Below are positions 1 through 53,013 of a DNA stretch of 64,000 nt, one piece after another (position 1 is the stretch's first letter; every line of letters begins with the position of its first letter). Source of the DNA: an uncultured Sulfolobales archaeon (GTDB lineage Archaea; Thermoproteota; Thermoprotei_A; Sulfolobales; NBVN01); assembly GCA_938045815.1 (NCBI GenBank), contig CALIBI010000008.1:6934-70933 (forward strand), read 5' to 3'. Under the pieces are notes generated by a model, which was not told the DNA's origin, ran no database searches, and was given only the letters and a program-made list of their open reading frames with translations. Both the position numbers and the translations under genes were made by a program.

Positions 1-345
1 AAGAGAAGAGAAATAATAGAGGACCTCTTAACCCAGATAACAGGTAACGTTGTTAAGATAAGAGCCGACTAACTAAGGATTAATCCTCATTGCTTATATC
101 AACTCCTTCATACGTTATTCTCAAGATCTCTTCTTACGTGAATATACCTCACTAACCTCTACCTATCTTTGATCCAGACCTAAAGCCCTTATTTAAGTTC
201 TTCGATTCGTTATCGTGGTGAAATCCCGCATCCAGATTTCCAGATATTCTTAATTCTCGACTTAAGTTATTTTTGGCCATACTCTCTCTAGAAGTCACGT
301 TAATGCTTTTTAAGTCTTGCTTTAAGAATCTATTAAGGTGTCAAG

Positions 346-513
346 ATGCCGGTAACAGATCCTGAAGCAATGAAGATCGTTGAGGCGAGAGTACTTAATA
401 AGCTCGTCTGCCGAAGATGCGGCGCGCTGAACCCTCCGGGAGCTACTAAATGCAGGAGATGTAAGAGCAAGTCTTTAAGACCTAAGAAGAAGAAAATAGG
501 CGTTAGGAAGTAG
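346..513 (+). CDS. rpl40e: 50S ribosomal protein L40e
   Basis: 55-aa ORF below the ORF-track cutoff, translated by hand: [55 protein letters not shown]. CxxC-x10-CxxC ribbon plus basic tail is typical of archaeal L40e. AGGTG SD about 5 nt upstream of the ATG. Confidence 0.9.
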
Positions 514-1275: not shown

Positions 1276-1366
1276 GCCGGGGTGGCCGAGCGGTCTAAGG
1301 CGGCGGGCTGCAGTGGTTTAGTCGATACCCGTTATCTCGCGGGTTCGAATCCCGCCCCCGGCTCCA
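1276..1366 (+). tRNA. intron-containing tRNA, anticodon most simply read as GCA (Cys); CCA encoded
   Basis: 7-bp acceptor GCCGGGG/CCCCGGC, D arm GCCG-AGCGGTCTA-AGGC, T arm GCGGG-TTCGAAT-CCCGC, discriminator T then CCA. The anticodon stem GCGGG only closes with CCCGT if about 13 nt (1314-1326, TGGTTTAGTCGAT) are removed after position 37, giving loop CT-GCA-GA. Isotype is less certain than tRNA identity. Confidence 0.8.
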
Positions 1367-6141: not shown

Positions 6142-8244
6142 TCAGGCAATAAGTAGTATCCAGTAAGCTGCTAACGAAATGGTTAAAGCAACCAATATTA
6201 AGTACGTAGTCACGTATAGAGTGAATCTCAAACTCTTACTTTCCTGGTATATCGTAGCTACTGTAGCCATGCATGGAACGTAAAACATCATGAAGATTAG
6301 TAACGAAACACCCTGAGCTATATTAAGGCCTAAAGATCTCAATGCTTCCTCCCCAGCTAAGCCAGTTATCTGGGAGACAGAAGCTATTAAACCTTCTTTA
6401 GCTATGAATCCGTAAATCAGTGCGTAACCAATCATCCAGGAATTCTCGCTTCCTACATCATACAATATCTCAAGAATCCTGCCTAAGTAAGAACCTACTA
6501 TAGCTCCATAAGAAGCTTCTGGCGAGTCAACATATCCTGCAGGACCATAAGACAGCAGTACCCAGCTAAGCACTGAGAGAACGAGAATTATTATGCCGGC
6601 CTTGCGAAGAAAATGTTTAGTGTTGCTCCAAGAACCCCACCAAACAACCTTAAAGCTTGGTCTATGTATCATAGGTAACTCCATAATTAGCTCTGGAGAT
6701 TCCCTAACACTACTCAAGATCCTCACTAACTTAGCAGTCAGTAAGTAGAGAATTATTGACAAAATATAGAGCAGTGTTATCACGGATGCTTGGATAAACG
6801 TGCTGCCAGGAAATAAAGACCTAGTGAAATAAAGCAGGACAATTAGTCTTGCTTGACATATTATGAATGGTGCTGAGACAATTATCTCACGTCTCTCAAC
6901 CTCATCTATGGAGATTCTAGACTGATAAACTGCGGGGACATTACAGCCAAACCCTATAACTAGCGGGTACAGAGCTCTCCCAGATAATCCAAAAAACTTG
7001 AAGAAATTGTGGAGGGAAGCAACCATTCTAGGACCTAAGCCGCTATCTTCAAGCATTGAGAGAGACGCTGAAACAAGAAATATCAGGGGTAGGAAGCTTA
7101 ACACTGTGCCGAGACCCCCCAGGATCCCGTCAACTACCAAGGAAACTAATTCTTCGTTTAAACCAGCTAATCCTGACCGGAGAACCTCTCCTACGAAAGC
7201 AAAGAAACTTTCAAGTAACCCGGATAGGCTGTGAGTCTCTAGTGCGTCAGCTATAGCTTCAAAACCTAGGTACCTGAGAATATATGTGAATGGGAAGCCT
7301 GTATTTAGCGTGAATGCTGCAGCAAACACAGCAAATAGGGTGATAACTGATGCTAGAGGACCTGTTAAAGTATTCAAGTAAATTTTATCGATTAAAGCCG
7401 TGATATGTGGTCTTACTCTCACCCTAACCACGGTTTCTCTAACTACTTGCGTCGCATACTCATATCTTTTTAGGATAGCTATTTCTTCAGGTGTTCTTTC
7501 AGTAGCTTTCCTGAATTCCTCCCGTAATTCTTCAGTCTTTTTTATGATATCCGGCCTACCCCTCATCAAGTCAACTATGTCTTGATCACTTTCTAGAAGT
7601 CTTAGAGCAACCCACCTCTTAGGTAGCTTACCTACTTCACTATCACCAATAAGTCCTGTTAATTCGTTAATGTAACTGTCGAGAAAACCGTAATCAATCT
7701 TGAGTGGGTTACTTTTAATCCTGCCCTCAGCTACATCAACTAGAGTGCTTAGAATCTCCCTAATCCCCTCACCAGTAATTGAAGAGACAGGAACTACCGG
7801 GAAGCTTAGTCTGGAACTAAGCTTCTTTACATCTAAGTGTAAACCTACCTTATGCGTTGCGTCCCACTTAGTTAAAGCTACTACTAGCTTATCAGTCATT
7901 TCACTAACCTGTATAGGTAGATATATAGATCTCTCAGGAATCAAAGAATCTGCTAAAACTAAAATAACGTCCCAATCACCAGAAATCAAGAAATTCTTAG
8001 TTATTTTTTCCTCAAGTGACGTGGGAGACAAACCATAAATACCTGGTAAGTCAACTAGACATAGAACCTTATCCCTGAAAGCAACTATCCCGACTTTTTG
8101 TTCTACTGTAGTACCGGGCCAACTAGCTACACGAACCAACTCACCAGTAACCTGAGCAAAAAACGTTGACTTACCGACAGAGGGTTGCCCAACAACAGCT
8201 ACTACATAGTCACATGTCCTCTCTCCAAACCTCCTCAACACCAC
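6142..8244 (-). CDS. feoB: ferrous iron transporter FeoB
   Basis: N-terminal G-domain (VGQPSVGKST, WPGTTVE, DLPGIYGL, TKWD) followed by a large polytopic membrane domain; 700 aa. No FeoA ORF is seen next to it. Confidence 0.9.
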   Translation of the reverse strand: MVLRRFGERTCDYVVAVVGQPSVGKSTFFAQVTGELVRVASWPGTTVEQKVGIVAFRDKVLCLVDLPGIYGLSPTSLEEKITKNFLISGDWDVILVLADSLIPERSIYLPIQVSEMTDKLVVALTKWDATHKVGLHLDVKKLSSRLSFPVVPVSSITGEGIREILSTLVDVAEGRIKSNPLKIDYGFLDSYINELTGLIGDSEVGKLPKRWVALRLLESDQDIVDLMRGRPDIIKKTEELREEFRKATERTPEEIAILKRYEYATQVVRETVVRVRVRPHITALIDKIYLNTLTGPLASVITLFAVFAAAFTLNTGFPFTYILRYLGFEAIADALETHSLSGLLESFFAFVGEVLRSGLAGLNEELVSLVVDGILGGLGTVLSFLPLIFLVSASLSMLEDSGLGPRMVASLHNFFKFFGLSGRALYPLVIGFGCNVPAVYQSRISIDEVERREIIVSAPFIICQARLIVLLYFTRSLFPGSTFIQASVITLLYILSIILYLLTAKLVRILSSVRESPELIMELPMIHRPSFKVVWWGSWSNTKHFLRKAGIIILVLSVLSWVLLSYGPAGYVDSPEASYGAIVGSYLGRILEILYDVGSENSWMIGYALIYGFIAKEGLIASVSQITGLAGEEALRSLGLNIAQGVSLLIFMMFYVPCMATVATIYQESKSLRFTLYVTTYLILVALTISLAAYWILLIA

Positions 8245-20717: not shown

Positions 20718-21067
20718 GTCTTCCTTATTCTTCTTACTCTTTCCAGAATATCTAGTAGGTAGATTAAGTCTTTCATCTCACTTGTGTTGATGTCCTCTCT
20801 CACGAAGAGCTCTACGTAAGTATGGAGCTTCCTAGCAACAGCTTTCTCAAGTTCTCTTAAAACAGCTGAAGATACTGCCTCAACCGCTTCCTCCTCACTC
20901 TTAACTATCTTAACAGGTCCGTGAATGGGGCAAACAACCTCGCCACTCCTAATCCTAAATAGGGGTAACCCACATAAAGGACACGCTTGCTCAAGCATTA
21001 CGGCGCCAGACCGCATTAAATCACTCATCTTCTTAACAACTTCTTCATTCTTTTCTTCTTTACTCAA
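20714..21067 (-). CDS. UPF0148 / autoantigen-p27-like zinc-ribbon protein
   Basis: MLEQACPLCGLPLFRIRSGEVVCPIHG matches the conserved ribbon of the archaeal UPF0148 family. Confidence 0.6.
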   Translation of the reverse strand: MSKEEKNEEVVKKMSDLMRSGAVMLEQACPLCGLPLFRIRSGEVVCPIHGPVKIVKSEEEAVEAVSSAVLRELEKAVARKLHTYVELFVREDINTSEMKDLIYLLDILERVRRIRKT

Positions 21068-21129
21068 TCTCTCACCAATATGTAATTGATTCCCAGAGAA
21101 TAAAGACTACCTATGTTCACCTCAAATAA

Positions 21130-24148: not shown

Positions 24149-25774
24149 ATCATCTAGACTCACAGTTTTTCTCTTCCTAGCCTGAAATTCCTCGCTACTC
24201 CCCTTAATTACTATCTCATAAAGCACGGCCTCCTTACCTGGTTTAGGTCTTAACAATCTCCCAAGCCTCTGGATAAACTGTCTGCGCGACCCGGTTCCAG
24301 CAACTAAAATCCCTACTGACGCGTCAGGTATGTCCAGACCCTCGTCACCAACGGTAGTTACTACTAGCACTCCGCTCTCAGCTCTTCTAAACTGGTCTAG
24401 TATAGATTTTCTCTTAGTCTCTTCCATCTCCCCGGTAAGTAGGTAGGCTCCTAGCTCATTAGCTATTTTCTCAGCTAGCGCTACGTAATGAGCGAACACT
24501 ATTATTTTCTTACCTTCACTCAACTCACGCTCAACGATCTCCTTAACTTTCTCTAGTTTCGACTCACTCATGGAGAGTATTTTTAATACCTCACTATGTA
24601 CTTCGAGAGCCCTAATAGCTTTCTCATCGCCTCGCTTAGCTAGGTCTACTAAGGTCTTGAAGTCTAAGCCACCAACCAACTCGCGAAATTGTTTTCTCAG
24701 CTTTAAGTATTCCTTCTTCTCATCGCTTTTCAGATCTACCTTAATAGTCTCTATCCTAAACTTAGCTAAAAATCCTTTCTCAGCTAGTTCCTGCGTAGTC
24801 TTTTGGTATACTACATCACCCATCAGAGGGAACAATTCTGAGTGCTTTCCATCTTCCCTGTACGGTGTTGCAGAGAGACCTAACCTGTACTTAGCTGGTG
24901 ATGTGATAGCTATGTGCTTGAACTTTTCTGCTGGTAGGTGATGAACCTCGTCTATTATGAGTAAGTTGAAGTGCGGAGCTAACTTCTCTATGTACTTAAA
25001 AGCTGTTTGGTAAGTAGCTAGAGTTACTGGCAATATTTTCTTTTCTCTGCTGTAGTAGAGACCTATGTGTGATGGTGGTATGTCGGTGAATGTTTTTATG
25101 AACTTCTCCCACTGCGTTAGTTGCTCCTTCGTGTAAGTTATTATGAGTGTTGCTTCATTAATACTTGTTATGGCTGCTATACCTATGTGTGTTTTCCCAG
25201 ACCCGGTAGGTAGTGCTACTATGCCGCGACCTGAATTACTTAACCACCTGTTTAACGCTTCTAACTGATACTCTCTAAGACTTCCTTTAAAACTCGCCTT
25301 AACTGGTAAGGGGATTGAGTCTTTAAAACCTGTCAAGTCATTTACGCTAAAACCCAAACCAGTAAGAGTTTTTCTTAGTTCATGATATTTTGAAGGATAC
25401 GCGTAGAAATACTTACCTACTTTATTGTATTTCAAGAGATCTTTCAGGTGAGTATGGTATATGTCTCCTAAATACCTATCGAAAGACAGTACTAGCTTGC
25501 CTTCCCTGAAATGAATAGTGGCGGTTCCCCTAACCCTACTAAAAAACTCTCTCAATCTATCTTCAAAAAACTTATCATACTGTAACCCAACCTCATCGAG
25601 AACCCCCAACACATCATCTGCTGTAAGTCTCCTACTAACTAACTTGTGTTTCGATATCCTGAAAATTAATTCGTCACCTTCCCTACCCAGATACTCAGCA
25701 ATCTCCACAATTTTTCTGAAGTTATCTTCACTCATCCAGCCCCTATACCTAACAATTAAGTCATTAGAACTCAT
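24110..25774 (-). CDS. xpb: XPB/Rad25-type SF2 DNA repair helicase
   Basis: Walker A LPTGSGKT, DEVHHL box, RED motif (TPYREDG), TVGDEGLDIP, QRLGRLLR, plus a damage-recognition-like N-terminal domain. Confidence 0.85.
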   Translation of the reverse strand: MSSNDLIVRYRGWMSEDNFRKIVEIAEYLGREGDELIFRISKHKLVSRRLTADDVLGVLDEVGLQYDKFFEDRLREFFSRVRGTATIHFREGKLVLSFDRYLGDIYHTHLKDLLKYNKVGKYFYAYPSKYHELRKTLTGLGFSVNDLTGFKDSIPLPVKASFKGSLREYQLEALNRWLSNSGRGIVALPTGSGKTHIGIAAITSINEATLIITYTKEQLTQWEKFIKTFTDIPPSHIGLYYSREKKILPVTLATYQTAFKYIEKLAPHFNLLIIDEVHHLPAEKFKHIAITSPAKYRLGLSATPYREDGKHSELFPLMGDVVYQKTTQELAEKGFLAKFRIETIKVDLKSDEKKEYLKLRKQFRELVGGLDFKTLVDLAKRGDEKAIRALEVHSEVLKILSMSESKLEKVKEIVERELSEGKKIIVFAHYVALAEKIANELGAYLLTGEMEETKRKSILDQFRRAESGVLVVTTVGDEGLDIPDASVGILVAGTGSRRQFIQRLGRLLRPKPGKEAVLYEIVIKGSSEEFQARKRKTVSLDDLAGVYEGSEQNL

Positions 25775-35142: not shown

Positions 35143-35334
35143 ATGGAGAAGTGGATGGCTTTTGATGTAAAAGCCAAGAAGAAAATAGAGATTCAGAACC
35201 CGCAGTTCGTGAAGTTAAAGAACAACAGGTGGGCGGTAGTAGGCACCAGTCCTGAAACCAAGATCAAGGTAGTTAGATTCTTAAGCAAGAAAGAAGTTGA
35301 GGACCTCAAAAAGAAGGGCTTAATTAAGGAATAA
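35143..35334 (+). CDS. small basic protein, putative nucleic-acid binding (zinc-less DUF5679/CC1-like)
   Basis: 63 aa and Lys-rich. TTTATATA box at 35101-35108 and GTGGTGA SD 5 nt before ATG 35143. The MAFDVKAKKKIEIQNPQFVKLKNNRWAVVGTSPETKIKVV pattern resembles small zinc-ribbon beta proteins with all Cys replaced. Confidence 0.5.
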   Translation: MEKWMAFDVKAKKKIEIQNPQFVKLKNNRWAVVGTSPETKIKVVRFLSKKEVEDLKKKGLIKE

Positions 35335-35612
35335 ACTAAAAACATAAAATTTACCTTTTTATTTTCAACTCTAAACCTTCCTAATTTCTTCAGTAGAGAG
35401 TTCCTTACTTAGCTTTTATCAGTTACTTTAGAGTTTCGTAGCTAGAATATCCTCGAAGAAATTGAAGCCAATGTTGTGAGACAAGATAGTAGAGATTCCC
35501 CAGCAGTATTTGCACGTCGTATAAGCTCTCCTTAAGAAAATCAGGGAAAGGACCCCCCAACTCTTTTTAAGTATTTCTATTTTGTCAGTATTACTGTGAG
35601 GTGTTGAACGCA

Positions 35613-42322: not shown

Positions 42323-43102
42323 TTACTCTTTCTCGCTTTCCGTACTGTCTTCTAATTCCCTCAGTATCCTCATATACTCCTCCTTCTTAATTTTCTTTAG
42401 GTATTCTCTTCTTGAGTGTTCTAGTATTTTCTCTAGTAACTGATCCTCGTAAGGCACACCTATGAACTCTACCTCACCATTTACCGCGATAGTTGGAACT
42501 GACATAACTCCATACTTATCCGCTATGTCTGGATTCTCGTAAGCTTCTATAATGTCAGCCGTAACTAGCCTGCTTCCCGACCTATACGACTCAAAAGCAA
42601 ACATATTTGCTAATAGGGCTGCATAAGGGCAGTAAGGACATGTCGGCGTAACTATAACATCTATCTTAACGGGAGCCTTCAGGTTCGCTAGCTCCCTCAC
42701 CGCATGCTCGTTTAATCCTGAGTCCCCAGCACTTAACCTAATTAAAGTCTCAATTAATCCCCTAATCTCTTCACCTGCCGGCATTCCAGTATACTTTATG
42801 TGCCCCTCAATCATTAAAACCGTGGGGACTCTTGATACATTATACTTCTTGAAGAACCCTTCCGCGTCCGCCTCCCTCTTCACGATCTTATGTCTTATTA
42901 GACTAGACCCACCTACCTTAGGACTAACACTCGATAAGGTCTCAATAAGTCTTACGGTGTTGGTGCAGTACCTGCAAGCACTCTCGACGAAGGTATATAC
43001 TTCGACAGGCTCCTTCATGTCTTTTAGCGTAGCTTCAAGCTCTTCTAAGTCTTCCTTACTTATACTAACCTTAAACATCTCATCAATCCACTCATACCCC
43101 AT
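42323..43102 (-). CDS. protein disulfide oxidoreductase (two thioredoxin folds, PDO family)
   Basis: Two CxxC sites (CRYC and CPYC) in tandem thioredoxin-like units, collinear with recalled Pyrococcus PDO. ATG 43102 is preceded by GGAGG; the track ORF extends to 43138. Confidence 0.85.
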   Translation of the reverse strand: MGYEWIDEMFKVSISKEDLEELEATLKDMKEPVEVYTFVESACRYCTNTVRLIETLSSVSPKVGGSSLIRHKIVKREADAEGFFKKYNVSRVPTVLMIEGHIKYTGMPAGEEIRGLIETLIRLSAGDSGLNEHAVRELANLKAPVKIDVIVTPTCPYCPYAALLANMFAFESYRSGSRLVTADIIEAYENPDIADKYGVMSVPTIAVNGEVEFIGVPYEDQLLEKILEHSRREYLKKIKKEEYMRILRELEDSTESEKE

Positions 43103-43245
43103 ACTCCAACCTCCCCCTAAAACTAACAATATTTTCAAATTATAAGCTTGTCTATCTTACTAAAACTTAAGGTAGTTTAGTTGAAACGTGGCTACTCATG
43201 ACATAGTTTTTAAGCTCTAGATACTTCTTATCTTAGGTGTAATGA

Positions 43246-46152: not shown

Positions 46153-46533
46153 AAATCACCAAATCTATCCATTAACTTACTCACTAAAAGTTTTATCAAC
46201 GCAGTTAATAGGTTTAGGAACACCGGATTTTATTAAGTGCTTACTTCCCCTACTCACCGCTATAGCTACTCCGCAAACAGTCTCCTAGGACATTTTAATG
46301 CTTCTTCTCTGTTTTCCAGCTACTCATCGAGTCACGACGAAATCTTCAAACATGTCACCTAGATCTAAGAGCGTGATCAAGAAAACGAGTTTCGGCTGTA
46401 ACACGTGTTCTTATGAAACTTGAAGCAGTAGTTTCGTTCTCACTAGAGCATGAGATGAGAATAGAACAACCATGCTAGGAGTAAAACACGGCGTAACGCT
46501 TCTCATGTCTTAACTTAAAAATCGAGCGAGAAG

Positions 46534-46615
46534 TTTACTCCCACTCTTCCTCTTCACCCTCTTCCCACTCTTCCTCCCACCATTCTTCCTCTTCTTCCTC
46601 CCACCACTCTTCCTC
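46534..46615. repeat. 82-nt G-free (plus strand) low-complexity CT/CA tract
   Basis: No G occurs between 46534 and 46615. The tract is built from reiterated CTCTTCC / CCACC units, so the minus strand is C-free GAR/TGG. Confidence 0.9.
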
Positions 46616-46621
46616 GAACAT
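46535..46621 (-). CDS. candidate micro-ORF: 28-aa Glu/Trp peptide MFEEEWWEEEEEEWWEEEWEEGEEEEWE
   Basis: Hand translation of the minus strand. ATG at 46621, TAA at 46535-46537, and an in-frame stop 18 nt upstream of the ATG. GGTG at -8..-11, a TATA-like box at -32..-44, and a T5 run 14-18 nt after the stop. No homologue known to me, so coding status is unproven. Confidence 0.35.
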   Translation of the reverse strand: MFEEEWWEEEEEEWWEEEWEEGEEEEWE

Positions 46622-46652
46622 AGGAACACACCAAGTTTATGTGTGCGAGAGG

Positions 46653-46665
46653 TTTAAAATATTTT
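46653..46665 (-). promoter_or_regulatory. palindromic TATA-like element TTTAAAATATTTT
   Basis: Lies 32-44 nt upstream of the micro-ORF ATG on the minus strand. Being palindromic, it could also fire on the plus strand. Confidence 0.4.
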
Positions 46666-46994
46666 CGATTTCGAAGTAACTTTCGTTTCAATCCTGCGAG
46701 ACTGCGTTGACGCTTCCAGCATTCCTGGAATTCACTACCATCTCCCTTCCTCACATCATTGAGCTTAGGAGTGTTCAGGAGTACCTACCTCAGGAGACTT
46801 CCTCAGGTCTTAAAGCCTCAAATACCTGGAGTAGTTCACACAAACAAACAGAGAACAATAACTCCCGTGAAGATTATCGAAAACCAAAACATTAACGACG
46901 TGTTGGCTAACTCTCTATCTCGTTCTTGATGACATGATCTCCGGCTTAGTTAAACTTATTTGGGGCGCTAACAAAAATTAGTGGATGTTGGGTG

Positions 46995-47264
46995 ATGGAT
47001 TCGGTAACCACTAGGAAATTAAGCGTGGGCAGCAAACCTATGGAAACTTACGTGCTGGTATTCAATAACTACGTAAACCAGGGCGTCAAGAAAATAGTGC
47101 TCTACGGTAGAGGCGATAACATACCTAGAGCAGTAGATCTATATAACCTCATTAGTAAGAGGTTAGGAAAATTGGTAAGACTTTCTAAAGTTGATATAGG
47201 CACTATAGAGTATGGTGGTAAGAGATCTTCCTACATAGAACTCGAACTAGAAATTCTTCGTTAG
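46995..47264 (+). CDS. albA2: chromatin protein Alba (Alba2-type)
   Basis: VLYGRGDNIPRAVDLYNLISKRLGKLVRL...SSYIELELEI is collinear with recalled Sulfolobus Alba2 (GTGREISKAVDVYNSLKDRLG...ISYILLRL). A CAAAAATTA box lies about 20 nt upstream, suggesting a leaderless or short leader. Confidence 0.8.
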   Translation: MDSVTTRKLSVGSKPMETYVLVFNNYVNQGVKKIVLYGRGDNIPRAVDLYNLISKRLGKLVRLSKVDIGTIEYGGKRSSYIELELEILR

Positions 47265-47519
47265 TACAGGACTCTTTTCTTGTTAAAGTTTCTAGGGATT
47301 CGCGGGCTTCAAGGATGATGATCGGGGAATTATCAGGGTTTTAAAGTAGTAGTCTAAGTAGTGGCGGCAGCACCCTAAACCACCAGAGAGTAACCTTTCT
47401 AGTACGTAGTGATTCAGTCGAGCTATACAGTTGTTCACGACCCTAGAGAGTTAATGTAGTTCATGAACACGAACAAGCACTAAGGAATATCTAGGGATGA
47501 CAGCAGTCAAAACTTAACA

Positions 47520-49343
47520 TCAGTCTTCAGCTAAGTGTTGTATTGGCTTGACGTAGTAGTACTCTCCTAACATTTTCTGTTGTCTGTCTAGGTAGGAGCC
47601 CGGCTTATTTATTCTTGGTCTATATGTTCTTAAGTCTCTCCTGAAAGTTACTTGCACTCCTTCTAAGAACTTATTCATGCCTGATCTGAGGTCTGCCGGT
47701 GATCTGGCGTATCCTTCCCTGCCAGGAGTGCCCTCAAAGACCACGACTCTATCGGAGATGTAGTCTGCGAGGAGCAGGTCGTGATCCACTACGAATATAG
47801 TGGTCTTACGTACCTCCGCTACTTTCCTTATAGCTTTAGCAACTGTTAATCTCTCCTCCACATCTATGAATGCTGAGGGCTCGTCAATCAAGTATAAGTC
47901 GGCTTCTCTAGCTAAAGCCACAGTAACGGCGAATTTCTGTAATTCTCCCCCGCTAAGGCTAGCTATCTCCTTATCCCCTAATTTATGAAGACCTAACTTC
48001 CTGATCACGTCGGTTTCGAACCATTCTGTAGATGCCATACCCTCCTTCCGAAGCTCTTTTAAAGCCTCATCAACTGTTGTCCAGGGGTAGTTCTCGGCTC
48101 TTATATACTGAGGCTTATAAGATATCCTGAGTCCTTCCGTGGTTACGTATCCTTCTTCAGGCTTGAGTTCCCCCGCGAGAAGTCTTATGAATGTCGTCTT
48201 ACCTATCGCGTTAGGACCTAACACACCTATTATCTCACCCATATGGGAGACACCCTCATCAACAACTAACTTAAAGTTGTTGAGTTTTTTCGTCATGTGA
48301 GGCCAGTACAAGTAAGGCTTTCTAGGTTCTGTACTCTCCGAAGGTTCTGCCCTGAAGTAGAAGGTTATTCTCTCACTCCTTATTCTCATGTTCTCTGCTG
48401 GCAAGAAACCCTCTAGAAAGTGATTTATTCCGGACCCTACTGAGTAGAGTTTTGAGCAAAGTCCGTAGACGCCTGGCTCCCCATACATCACGACTACACT
48501 ATCAGAGACGTAATCTAGTACCGCTAGGTCATGCTCCACCACCATTACGTAGGCGGACCTAGGCGTTAACTCTCTGATAGCATTCGCTACAGCTAGCCTT
48601 TCCTTGACGTCCAAGTAGCTAGAGGGTTCGTCAAAGAAGTAGGCCCCCGCATCCCTAAGTAGAGCAGCAGCCACTGTAAATCTCTGGAGTTCCCCACCAC
48701 TTAAGTTACTAATTTTGTTATCCCAGGCACTTTCTAAAGACAACATTTTCCTAACTTCATTTAGTAGTCCTCTCTCATCTATTCTTGTTAAGACCTCGCC
48801 TACGTGACCTCTCACATACTTTCTTACGAGGTCTACGTGCTGTATTTTATGAACTCTCCTTAAGCTTCCATCAGCCACTATTCTTAGGTAGTTGTAGAGT
48901 TCTGTTCCCCTGAATTTCTCGAGTGCTTTATCCCAAGATGGTTCTACCTCAAATACTCCTAGGTTAGGTGTTAGTTCACCTGAAAGTATTCTTAAGACTG
49001 TTGTCTTGCCAGACCCGTTCTTACCTAATATACCTATGACCATCCCGGTCTGAGGTGTTGGTAAGCCGTAAAGTTTGAAGGCGTTAGGTCCGTATCTGTG
49101 TACTACGCGCTTCTCTAGCTCATCAGGTAAGTTAACTACGCTTATAGCGTAGTAAGGACACTTCTTAACACATATGCCGCAACCAACACACGCAACCTCG
49201 TAAATGAAGGCCTTACCACCAACAGACTCAGAAATCTCGATAGCTTTACCCCCACTCCGATTAATAGGGCAGAACCTCACACACTCTAAACGACACCTAT
49301 GCGGTTTACAGAGATCATAGTCTACTACAGCAACCCTAACCAT
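47520..49343 (-). CDS. abce1: ABCE1 / RNase L inhibitor ribosome-recycling ATPase
   Basis: N-terminal 2x[4Fe-4S] domain (CKPHRCRLECVRFCP, CVGCGICVKKCP). Two ABC cassettes (GKNGSGKTT, LSGGELQR; GPNAIGKTT, LSGGELQK). Start at ATG 49343 (MVRVAVVDYD), which has GGTGTGTGAGG upstream. Confidence 0.9.
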   Translation of the reverse strand: MVRVAVVDYDLCKPHRCRLECVRFCPINRSGGKAIEISESVGGKAFIYEVACVGCGICVKKCPYYAISVVNLPDELEKRVVHRYGPNAFKLYGLPTPQTGMVIGILGKNGSGKTTVLRILSGELTPNLGVFEVEPSWDKALEKFRGTELYNYLRIVADGSLRRVHKIQHVDLVRKYVRGHVGEVLTRIDERGLLNEVRKMLSLESAWDNKISNLSGGELQRFTVAAALLRDAGAYFFDEPSSYLDVKERLAVANAIRELTPRSAYVMVVEHDLAVLDYVSDSVVVMYGEPGVYGLCSKLYSVGSGINHFLEGFLPAENMRIRSERITFYFRAEPSESTEPRKPYLYWPHMTKKLNNFKLVVDEGVSHMGEIIGVLGPNAIGKTTFIRLLAGELKPEEGYVTTEGLRISYKPQYIRAENYPWTTVDEALKELRKEGMASTEWFETDVIRKLGLHKLGDKEIASLSGGELQKFAVTVALAREADLYLIDEPSAFIDVEERLTVAKAIRKVAEVRKTTIFVVDHDLLLADYISDRVVVFEGTPGREGYARSPADLRSGMNKFLEGVQVTFRRDLRTYRPRINKPGSYLDRQQKMLGEYYYVKPIQHLAED

Positions 49344-49407
49344 CCTCACACACCAAAACAAGAAAAATAAGAACACTTATTAACGTAAAGAACAACAACT
49401 AAATGGA

Positions 49408-49456
49408 ATGATGAGTGGTGACGGCAAGGATAGGTGACTAGTAACTCCAATACTGA
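49408..49456 (+). ncRNA. candidate C/D box sRNA
   Basis: AUGAUGA (C) - 12 nt GUGGUGACGGCA - AGGA (D'-position) - UAG - GUGACUA (C'-position) - 12 nt GUAACUCCAAUA - CUGA (D). The 7+12+4+3+7+12+4 spacing is exactly canonical for archaeal C/D sRNAs. The internal boxes are degenerate. Confidence 0.45.
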
Positions 49457-49746
49457 CTATTACAGCCGAAAACAATAGCTTTGGGCTGTGATGAGAGTTC
49501 ATAGGTTTCTGGTTTGGTATTTTAGTAGCGTGATTTAAAGCTTGTAGGTCCCGCAAACCTTTCTCGTGATAATTCAGAAATCCAACCTTCTAAAGCTACG
49601 GACTAGGTGAAGTAATGAAAAGTAGGTGAACTAGCACTTAAGGAAGACTAGAGTAGTACGCGCGATCAGCAACATTAGCCCAACATTAAAGATTTATATT
49701 TATTTACCCTACTTACTTCTAGATAAGAAAGTCGCGGTGTTGATGT

Positions 49747-50520: not shown

Positions 50521-50802
50521 TTATTGACTTCCCCCTTCCTCCTCACTCATCAACTCCAAGAAAATCTCATAGTAGTTTTCTTTCTCCTGCTCTAATTCTT
50601 CAGATTTTCTTAATTTTTCTCCCTCAGAACTGACAACTGAGGTAGTCTTAACTCTGCTTTCGCTACTAGTCTTACTCTCTAACTTATACTTAGAACCCTC
50701 TTTCAGCAGTTCTTTATAGCCACACCTAGAACACGCTAGATAAGTCTTGTCTCCTTCTCTCACGGGAATCAACATAGTTCCACACTTAGGACAGAACTTC
50801 AT
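50521..50802 (-). CDS. TFS/Rpb9-type N-terminal zinc-ribbon protein lacking the C-terminal catalytic ribbon
   Basis: MKFCPKCGTMLIPVREGDKTYLACSRCGYKE is the classical RpoM/TFS N-ribbon. The remaining 60 aa are Ser/Glu-rich with an acidic tail and contain no second CxxC...CxxC. Confidence 0.6.
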   Translation of the reverse strand: MKFCPKCGTMLIPVREGDKTYLACSRCGYKELLKEGSKYKLESKTSSESRVKTTSVVSSEGEKLRKSEELEQEKENYYEIFLELMSEEEGGSQ

Positions 50803-52936: not shown

Positions 52937-53013
52937 GGGCCGGTAGCTCAGCCTGGAAGAGCGCTCGGCTTGCAACCGAGAGGCCCCGGGTTCAAATCCC
53001 GGCCGGTCCACCA
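52937..53013 (+). tRNA. tRNA-Ala (anticodon TGC), CCA encoded
   Basis: Cloverleaf folded by hand: acceptor GGGCCGG/CCGGTCC with the G3:U70 Ala identity pair, anticodon arm CTCGG-CTTGCAA-CCGAG, T arm CCGGG-TTCAAAT-CCCGG. Confidence 0.95.

Follow-up and report, generated by a model that had tools for sequence, protein, structure and literature searches.

A conserved glutamate/tryptophan micro-gene genomically coupled to the ribosome-recycling ATPase ABCE1 in hyperthermophilic Thermoproteota

Introduction

Can a tract of DNA that reads as little more than glutamate and tryptophan codons be a gene, and what would its product do? The question arises in a 64,000-nt stretch of contig CALIBI010000008.1 from an uncultured Sulfolobales archaeon (positions 6,934 to 70,933, forward strand), here called the window. 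Its minus strand carries an open reading frame (ORF) for a peptide of 28 residues, MFEEEWWEEEEEEWWEEEWEEGEEEEWE, referred to below as the E/W peptide. Of these residues 19 are Glu and 6 are Trp, while Lys and Arg are absent; the calculated mass is 3923.9 Da (3.9 kDa) and the net charge about −19. Substitutions among close relatives and signals shared across a wider family make it very probable that this 28-codon frame is a genuine gene with expression of its own. Its genomic company points, more tentatively, to the translation apparatus.

Results

The micro-ORF and its signals

The micro-ORF is read directly from the sequence. The elements at the locus, in the order of transcription, are as follows.

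46653 to 46665, minus strand: A/T-rich, TATA-like box AAAATATTTTAAA, at −44 to −32 from the start codon; its promoter role is predicted from the sequence.
46637 to 46639, minus strand: in-frame TAA stop, at −18 to −16 from the ATG, kept in all five genomes of the window's clade.
46629 to 46632, minus strand: Shine-Dalgarno (SD)-like GGTG, at −11 to −8, 7 nt before the ATG and within an invariant 18-nt leader, TAAACTTGGTGTGTTCCT.
46535 to 46621, minus strand: micro-ORF MFEEEWWEEEEEEWWEEEWEEGEEEEWE, with ATG at 46621, 27 sense codons, and TAA at 46535.
46524 to 46546, minus strand: hairpin of nine pairs, in which the last codons and the stop pair with the sequence preceding a T run, followed by that run.
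46517 to 46521, minus strand: T5 run, an archaeal terminator-type signal 14–18 nt past the stop, kept as CGATTTTTAAG in the clade.

Because the upstream in-frame TAA closes the frame, the micro-ORF cannot be a fragment of a longer ORF. The ORF, the A/T box, the GGTG, the upstream stop, and the T5 run all lie where a first-pass annotation of this DNA had placed them, as do the G-free plus-strand tract opposite the frame (46534–46615, 82 nt) and the surrounding gap (46153–47519). No other stretch of the window lacking an ORF of at least 100 amino acids is as large. No Rfam family and no tRNA was found in the gap. The tract itself matched no Rfam model at the gathering threshold, and under permissive settings the sole overlapping match was to a plant-microRNA model (E = 2), with a score that fell far short of gathering.

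The absence of G was considered as a signal in itself and ruled out. Such tracts are common in the window, so that the tract alone is no evidence of a gene: there are five others of at least 45 nt, one of which is longer (43050–43145, 96 nt). Further long plus-strand tracts are those at 21014–21081 (68 nt), 35330–35392 (63 nt), and 25525–25581 (57 nt). Some of these tracts seem to overlap minus-strand coding sequence and others look intergenic. The tracts may reflect a genome-wide strand-compositional bias. The evidence for a gene is instead the conservation, together with an architecture and signals shared beyond chance, as described below.

The whole sense transcript of the micro-ORF folds somewhat better than shuffled sequence (z = −3.2), and the stop-spanning hairpin is specific to the window's clade. 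Across the family, pairing is at the level of shuffled sequence (mean z −0.39), which rules out the hairpin as a family-wide attenuator.

Substitutions in close relatives

Relatives were retrieved through the neighbouring nucleoside phosphorylase (Pfam PNP_UDP_1), which gives a set of at least 80 genome loci that is independent of the peptide. An exact-sequence look-up of the window's phosphorylase returned no record; the closest locus among those listed belongs to Candidatus Zestomicrobium tamdykulense, with 95% phosphorylase identity. Upstream of the phosphorylase, four loci (L001, L003, L004, and L007; phosphorylase 88–95% identical) encode the identical 28-residue peptide. When the five sequences are aligned, 10 of the 87 columns vary, nine of them at synonymous third positions and one by a swap between TAA and TGA. 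No amino acid changes, and the frame, the ATG, the stop, and the Trp positions are all conserved. Conservation beyond the ORF is limited to three short blocks: the A/T box, kept as AAAATATTTAAAAC in the four relatives despite a diverging flank around it; the 18-nt leader with GGTG; and CGATTTTTAAG after the stop. The remaining flanks of the clade alignment are about 50% identical and carry indels that are not multiples of three.

A structural, triplex-prone purine/pyrimidine tract had been named as the non-coding alternative at first reading. Under a purine-only constraint, 52 non-synonymous and 19 synonymous sites would be open to A/G changes, and all eight of the observed changes are synonymous (P ~3e-5). 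The A/G changes thus avoid codon positions 1 and 2, by which the non-coding purine-tract reading is rejected. Family-wide, nearest-neighbour differences fall 251:21:23 at codon positions 3:1:2, a count to which the search pattern adds some bias; the set of five sequences derived by synteny provides the test free of it.

Two competing frames were also considered and set aside. The antisense Ser/His frame seems equally synonymous (GAR is TCY in antisense), but it has no start codon in L001 and L003 and its ends are variable; its conservation follows automatically from codon geometry. In the sense +1 frame, rich in Lys, Arg, and Gly, the changes become K/R swaps at its codon position 2 while its position 3 is invariant, a pattern that speaks against a coding frame. 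It opens at a GTG within the conserved leader, spans 46510–46629 on the minus strand, and would give 39 amino acids. The possibility that the tract belongs to a longer structured RNA of the plus strand also largely fell away, as plus-strand RNA is essentially unstructured across it and has no Rfam match. That the window locus is a real coding micro-gene can, from these comparisons, be held with high confidence.

A family of E/W micro-ORFs

Scanning metagenomes with the pattern EEEWWEEE matched at least 120 loci, and 83 of those listed carry a stand-alone micro-ORF of the same design. With the window and its four relatives these make a family set of 87 loci, to which six genome loci from look-ups of ABCE1 homologues are additional. 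The pattern is specific, with one match in 2.9 million viral contigs. The 87 listed loci encode 57 different peptides with 20 or more residues, of which most are 23–33 amino acids long and a few reach 41; the six genome loci bring the number to about 60, spanning 23–41 amino acids. All share one plan, in which Met and 1–4 hydrophobic residues are followed by Glu runs broken by W or WW and mostly by a Trp at the end. The consensus is EEEWWEEEEEEWWEEEEEWEEEEW, and the pattern can be written (M + 1–4 hydrophobic residues)-EEE-WW-EEEEEE-WW-EEEEE-W-EEEE-W. Length varies by whole codons, in multiples of 3 as the first-pass annotation had expected of a gene, and where one locus holds two copies of the motif, these are spaced in multiples of three.

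The signals of the window recur across the family. An SD-like motif lies at −4 to −16 in 66 of the 74 members listed, against 16% of random sites; with the six genome loci added, 77 of 80 have one, with a spacing peak at 6–7 nt before the start and 80% G at −11. Upstream A/T boxes are present in 44 of the 74 (13% of random sites) and peak 35–40 nt before the start. T runs of five or more within 45 nt past the stop are present in 46 (6% of random sites), and in about ten members the run begins directly after the stop codon. With silent-only substitutions in the clade and start, SD, promoter, and terminator signals throughout the family, the earlier proposal of a self-contained, translated micro-gene is borne out.

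Members occur in well-known genomes. Hyperthermus butylicus (CP000493.1) has the micro-ORF MKWILLEEEEEWWEEEEEEEWWEEEEEEEEWEEEEW (111 nt, with a calculated peptide mass of about 5019 Da) and Pyrodictium occultum has MKWLILDEEEEWWEEEEEEEEWWEEEEEEEEWEEEEW, both uncalled and both in the gap upstream of ABCE1; DNA around ABCE1 homologues shows a micro-ORF in the same position in four further genomes or metagenome-assembled genomes. Of these genomes only one, L327, has the micro-ORF annotated as a gene (32 amino acids, no Pfam match). Prodigal applies a minimum gene length of 90 nt, which is probably why the 87-nt window ORF was never called; this minimum is no explanation for longer uncalled copies such as that of H. 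butylicus. The carriers found are all hyperthermophiles, and all named ABCE1 clusters derive, by source name, from Thermoproteota. A wide distribution of the family in hyperthermophilic Thermoproteota is strongly supported by these sequences, as is an ancestral position in the gap between a Cgi121-like gene and ABCE1.

Not every E/W frame belongs to this family. A broader pattern, WWEE..EWWEE, matched at least 120 phage contigs, in which it marks the antisense frame of unrelated (PFF/PPFF)n repeat proteins. In IMG/VR contigs L081, L089, L090, L094, L095, L104, L122, and others, long (WEE/WWEE/REE)n frames run antisense to proteins of 310–360 amino acids that have a globular N-terminal part and a C-terminal (PFF/PPFF)n repeat, with all six frames open across the arrays. 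As these phage frames are antisense artefacts, a purine tract that reads as E/W is no evidence by itself; the archaeal family differs from them in having a bounded ORF with its signals and in the way substitutions fall. ORFs that contain E/W but are longer (L223, L282, L222, and others) were discarded as chance matches in unrelated contexts. At L305, a 45-residue acidic and aromatic ORF, MDWEDLKKRIKELRMKEEDEGEGWEEDFDEEDFEEGEEEWWEEEW, lies at about 25–162 (+), 33 nt upstream of a gene at 195–500 (+), which we take by eye to be aIF1A-like and which was not confirmed against Pfam. This ORF may be distantly related to the family or may have matched by chance.

The peptides match nothing described. 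Five family peptides gave no match to Pfam or NCBIfam at E values up to 10, and the family profile gave none among PDB sequences. Against 5.8 billion proteins the profile returned nothing at E ≤ 0.01, a search of low power for a low-complexity profile of 28 residues. The open-access papers searched yielded no description of the sequence, of Glu/Trp small proteins or of a small ORF linked to ABCE1. In agreement with the first impression of this locus, the micro-protein family is apparently undescribed and unannotated.

An amphipathic helix was ruled out, as the aromatic residues do not fall on any single helical face (resultant 0.08–0.17). Together with a charge of about −19 and the lack of Lys and Arg, this suggests a disordered polyanion with Trp anchors.

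ABCE1 and other neighbours

The gene that accompanies the family, unnoticed at first reading, is that of the ribosome-recycling ATPase ABCE1. The relevant features upstream of the micro-ORF in the window are the following.

47520 to 49343, minus strand: ABCE1/RLI ribosome-recycling ATPase (Pfam Fer4_RLI and two ABC_tran; PDB ABCE1 chains at E ~1e-215).
49404 to 49458, plus strand: candidate C/D-box small RNA (sRNA), antisense to and upstream of ABCE1, marking the ancestral E/W slot.
50521 to 50802, minus strand: RPB9-type Zn-ribbon gene, a recurrent E/W neighbour.

In the window, ABCE1 shares the strand of the micro-ORF, and its end lies 899 nt upstream. Neighbours were surveyed by clustering all ORFs within 3 kb of each micro-ORF at the 87 loci listed, and ABCE1 dominates, lying within 1 kb in 70 of them. 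Most often it is directly downstream on the same strand (54 of 87, with 36 distinct peptides), starting 53–592 nt after the E/W stop, and the spacer holds an A/T box or SD of its own for ABCE1. It is divergent at about 650–700 nt in nine loci and upstream on the same strand in seven, six of these being the window's clade (433–901 nt) and the seventh L267, at 3.2 kb. One locus, L249, has an opposite-strand ABC-type match, 34% identical and overlapping the ORF region, that is probably not ABCE1. No ABCE1 was found at the remaining 16 of the 87, which are mostly on contigs that end nearby.

At 75% identity the linked ABCE1 proteins fall into 17 clusters, between which identity is only 45–72%. Across these clusters the constant neighbours are ABCE1 and the Cgi121-like gene, not chromatin genes, and the usual order is Cgi121-like, E/W, ABCE1. 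The E/W family is genomically coupled to ABCE1 across deep lineages, as read from these gene orders. The Cgi121-like neighbour encodes about 175–180 amino acids (a weak CGI-121 match) and is sometimes preceded by, or fused to, a ThiS/Urm1-like domain. Another recurrent neighbour is the RPB9-type Zn-ribbon protein (93–100 amino acids, one ribbon, MKFCPKCG..., acidic C-terminus), whose gene is directly downstream of E/W in L206, L268, L225, L240, L279, and L320 and divergent in L210 and L278. In some clades it starts 21–43 nt after the E/W stop with no T run between, an operon-like arrangement. Other genes that recur are those for S17e, the thermosome, a phosphoribosyltransferase, and an FBP aldolase/phosphatase, and Tsr3-like and aIF1A-like genes are among the neighbours of the loci unlinked to ABCE1. 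Elsewhere in the 64-kb window are two tRNA-Ala(UGC) genes, at 1276–1366 (+) and 52937–53013 (+); the length of the first, 91 nt, suggests an intron.

Relocation and the candidate sRNA

The window's own gene order departs from the usual one. There the E/W gene lies beyond alba2 and ahead of the phosphorylase operon, downstream of ABCE1, while L327 and L328, with ABCE1 proteins 75% and 70% identical, have the order Cgi121-like, E/W, conserved element, ABCE1, which is the ancestral one. The window arrangement is, by this comparison of gene orders, derived, the gene having moved to the other side of ABCE1. The peptide of the clade remained unchanged after the move, with no amino-acid change among 10 variable columns, and its persistence away from the 5′ end of ABCE1 favours a product that acts in trans. 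L246 encodes the same peptide as the window with neither ABCE1 nor alba nearby.

The conserved element is the candidate sRNA. Its core, GCCGTCACCACTC, has an exact copy at 49413–49425 (−) in the window, upstream of ABCE1. The candidate comprises a C box (AUGAUGA), a guide (GUGGUGACGGCA), a C′-like box, and a D box (CUGA), about 60–110 nt before the ABCE1 start and on the opposite strand. Rfam models of archaeal C/D sRNAs match it at full length but below threshold: sR17 in the window with 15.9 bits, and sR28 at L271 1462–1517 (−) with 25.2 bits (E 0.016). The element lies between E/W and ABCE1 in L203, L215, L258, L260, L261, L288, L292, L304, L327, and L328. The core is conserved over Desulfurococcaceae-type loci, and in Hyperthermus and Pyrodictium (Pyrodictiaceae) it is retained while the boxes are degenerate. 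Readings of GCCGTCACCACTC as an anti-SD mimic or as a pairing partner for EWW codons were considered, and an opposite-strand C/D-box sRNA is better supported.

Discussion

A trans-acting ligand of the translation apparatus

The reading that we tentatively prefer, though we would put it somewhat short of an even chance when taken in full, is that an independent micro-gene makes a trans-acting peptide tied to ABCE1 or to the wider translation apparatus. There is strong sequence support for a gene that is transcribed and translated on its own, from its A/T-box promoter through a short SD leader and 28 codons to an oligo-T terminator. Its product would be a ~4-kDa, intrinsically disordered polyanion with four Trp "stations". 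It would serve in trans as an acidic-aromatic ligand that binds some basic or hydrophobic surface within the translation apparatus, and most plausibly it would target ABCE1 or the factor-binding and ribosome-recycling step. Trans action is suggested by the gene's own signals, the separate signals of ABCE1, the candidate sRNA that intervenes, the occurrence in six local arrangements, and the retention of the peptide after unlinking.

ABCE1 as target is proposed on precedent, from genomic association and composition only. The acidic C-terminal tail EEEVSEEEALAGLSALFG of aP1, an archaeal stalk protein, binds nucleotide-binding domain 1 (NBD1) of ABCE1 with a Kd of 3.9 uM and activates its ATPase (PMC6125642). 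The N-terminus of eIF3j sits at a similar position on ABCE1, and eIF3j boosts ABCE1-dependent splitting (PMC7780240). The E/W peptide might work like either of these, both of which dock on the NBD1 patch and modulate the ATPase. A more specific version, which we consider rather unlikely as it stands, argues from this analogy that the peptide is a dedicated ribosome-recycling cofactor. It would tune ATPase activity or release on the stalk/eIF3j patch of NBD1 or on the post-splitting 30S–ABCE1 complex, as an archaeal counterpart of the eIF3j N-terminal region that has stood beside ABCE1 since before the Desulfurococcales-type radiation.

Several points weigh against a trans-acting ligand. Its function is deduced entirely from genomic association and composition, and the peptide lacks the L-x-x-L-F-G motif by which aP1 binds ABCE1. 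The commonest arrangement, 50–150 nt upstream of ABCE1 on the same strand, equally fits a cis-regulatory leader. With nine Glu among its first 13 residues, the ORF resembles sequences shown to abort bacterial and yeast translation (PMC9718836), and efficient production of the peptide is therefore not guaranteed. The family counts come from the EEEWWEEE pattern, among the matches listed, and are thus a biased sample. Finally, no E/W ORF is present within about 20 kb of either ABCE1 or the phosphorylase in L326 and L005, which are the same contig (c_000001882021 / CALIKV010000025.1; ABCE1 80% identical). The gene may therefore be dispensable or mobile, and in this relative it may have been lost or moved elsewhere. 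That contig keeps the sRNA-like element upstream of ABCE1, with alba downstream and cdvA/cdvB/vps4 alongside.

Alternative explanations

Instead of a ligand, the ORF may be a sensor or leader that acts in cis, a reading that is unlikely but has to be taken seriously. Translation of the acidic nascent chain, through pausing or ribosome destabilisation, would then set the expression of the downstream gene, mostly ABCE1 and in the window the phosphorylase operon, with mgtL-like feedback on ABCE1 synthesis. The position fits, as the ORF is directly upstream of ABCE1 on the same strand in 54 of the 71 listed loci with an ABCE1 copy, often at 53–150 nt. So does the composition: 9 of the first 13 residues are Glu in the window peptide, and likewise across the family. 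Runs of D/E at the N-terminus, which proteomes avoid, abort translation in E. coli, yeast, and human systems (PMC9718836, PMC12673854), and in E. coli such sequences are relieved by twin-ABC ribosome ATPases of the ABCF type (PMC11162784, PMC11282234). Silent-only substitutions would likewise result if selection acted on a nascent peptide, the L206 and L268 clades have no T run between the ORF and the next gene, and in the window's clade a terminating ribosome could influence the hairpin that covers the stop codon just before the T run.

Other observations are hard to reconcile with control in cis. In most members a T5–T7 run precedes ABCE1, which has its own A/T box or SD, and an opposite-strand candidate sRNA gene often lies between. 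The exact peptide was kept after relocation, and the sequence is kept in divergent and unlinked arrangements. The stop-spanning hairpin is no family feature, nor is there a family-wide alternative RNA structure. The Trp stations and the C-terminal Trp are tightly conserved, although destabilisation by charge needs neither, and N-terminal D/E avoidance was not seen in the archaeon Pyrococcus furiosus (PMC9718836). For the phosphorylase operon in particular, the leader or upstream ORF suggested by the first-pass annotation is unlikely, given the conserved T5 run after the ORF and the place of the gene beside ABCE1 outside the clade. The trans-ligand and cis-sensor models are not mutually exclusive.

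An improbable alternative is a general polyanion with no tie to ABCE1, either a nucleic-acid mimic or chaperone for basic proteins (Alba2, chromatin, ribosomal) or a buffer of cations and polyamines. A peptide of this composition, with a charge of about −19, interspersed aromatics, and neither Lys nor Arg, would bind basic proteins, polyamines, or Mg2+, and all carriers found are hyperthermophiles. A general role as polyanion or nucleic-acid mimic, one of the earlier suggestions, is compatible with the data; the tie to Alba2 as its client finds no support in the family context. In the window and five relatives the divergent gene next to E/W is alba2. This adjacency does not extend beyond one shallow clade, which has a single peptide sequence, and L246 encodes that peptide with no alba nearby. 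The constant neighbours over the 17 ABCE1 clusters are not chromatin genes, and a bulk buffer needs no conserved Trp stations, length, or C-terminal Trp.

It is highly improbable that the ORF is the precursor of a modified peptide or cofactor, in the manner of ribosomally synthesised and post-translationally modified peptides, for example with a Glu/Trp cross-link as in PqqA. The ORF is very short with two residue types at fixed positions, and precursors of this kind often go unannotated; however, it has no leader/core organisation, and no genes for radical-SAM, YcaO, protease/peptidase, or transporter/exporter proteins were found within ±3 kb (87 listed loci) or among called genes (seven genome loci). 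The genes that do recur nearby are translation-related or housekeeping ones. Least credible is an accidental ORF in a non-coding element, whether a purine-pyrimidine tract prone to form triplexes or a segment of a structured RNA: the other G-free tracts, the phage E/W frames that are mere antisense artefacts of (PFF)n repeat genes, and the somewhat better than shuffled folding of the sense RNA (z = −3.2) speak for it, while against it stand substitutions only at synonymous third positions where A/G changes elsewhere would keep the purine tract (P ~3e-5), family length changes in whole codons, a conserved ATG, stop, SD spacing, and upstream in-frame stop, and an unstructured plus-strand RNA with no Rfam match and no longer overlapping frame.

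Comparison with known systems

The closest functional precedent for a ligand of ABCE1 is the stalk tail of aP1/P1/P2 (EEEVSEEEALAGLSALFG in aP1), which, like the E/W peptide, joins a flexible Glu run to C-terminal hydrophobic or aromatic anchors. The tail is tied to ABCE1 functionally, since it binds both the translation GTPases and ABCE1 NBD1 (PMC6125642), whereas the E/W peptide is tied to it by genomic association only. An L-x-x-L-F-G helix mediates binding by the tail, through L103, L106, and F107. In the E/W peptide there is no such Leu/Phe motif (L-x-x-L-F-G, GFGLFD); it uses Trp instead and is far more acidic. The tail is moreover fixed to a ribosome-bound dimerisation domain, while the E/W ORF stands alone between in-frame stops.

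The N-terminal region of eIF3j is acidic and contains Trp; to our knowledge, archaea have no eIF3j. This factor (eIF3j/Hcr1) is an ABCE1 accessory factor whose N-terminal region reaches the nucleotide-binding sites at a position like that of the aP1 peptide (PMC7780240). It is otherwise a protein of about 250–265 amino acids that forms a dimeric six-helix bundle and places its basic C-terminus in the mRNA channel, and its likeness to the E/W peptide is one of composition and associated partner, with no sequence relationship (no Pfam match).

We know of no demonstration of ribosome destabilisation by D/E sequences in archaea. Among regulatory ORFs, mgtL of E. coli and Salmonella and the D/E-rich "risky" ORFs are, like E/W, very short, with acidic residues right after the start. 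The E/W ORF is mostly just upstream of a gene that acts on ribosome integrity, and the destabilisation phenomenon is known from bacteria to humans (PMC9718836, PMC12673854). A D/E cluster within the first ~10–13 codons, the hallmark of the mgtL type, is present in E/W and is the only defining feature of the known systems compared that it has. Unlike mgtL, which sits in the 5′ leader of its target mRNA and acts by way of alternative RNA structures, E/W has its own predicted promoter and terminator, keeps its sequence when unlinked, and lacks family-wide hairpins. Co-transcription with ABCE1 would be suggested by the 54 listed loci in which the ORF is in tandem upstream, yet a T5+ run and separate ABCE1 signals lie between, and the window copy is not upstream of ABCE1.

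Tandem Trp codons in a short ORF followed by a terminator-like signal also recall trpL and TnaC. The genes downstream of E/W are those for ABCE1, the RPB9-type Zn-ribbon protein, or nucleoside phosphorylase, with no trp or tna gene among them, and the terminator/antiterminator pair of these leaders is not conserved in the E/W family (mean z −0.39). We know of no archaeal attenuation system.

In composition, a further parallel is DSS1/Sem1, a tiny, disordered, and highly acidic eukaryotic protein whose Trp and Phe residues anchor in basic grooves of its partners and which can mimic nucleic acid. DSS1 is longer (about 70–90 amino acids) and Asp-rich, and it resides in the proteasome lid, BRCA2, and TREX-2 complexes, which are absent from archaea; the E/W peptides have no match to the Pfam family DSS1_SEM1.

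Implications

ABCE1 is essential and universal in archaea and eukaryotes, and the E/W gene bears on the question of how its ATPase cycle and its release from the small subunit are controlled in archaea, which lack eIF3j. From its genomic setting, the gene likely marks an unknown player in archaeal translation. If the ORF were a sensor, it would be the first case of archaeal regulation by an acidic nascent chain, linked to the ribosome-splitting factor. On either reading, the peptide is among the most extreme natural compositions (about 70% Glu and 20% Trp) and is under tight purifying selection.

The gene was probably missed by standard methods, since an 87-nt ORF is below the 90-nt minimum of Prodigal and a peptide without Lys or Arg is not cut by trypsin. 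The E/W peptide is cheap to synthesise and is a directly testable candidate. More broadly, the family illustrates that conserved coding sequence can hide in the "empty" intergenic gaps of well-known genomes, such as that of Hyperthermus butylicus.

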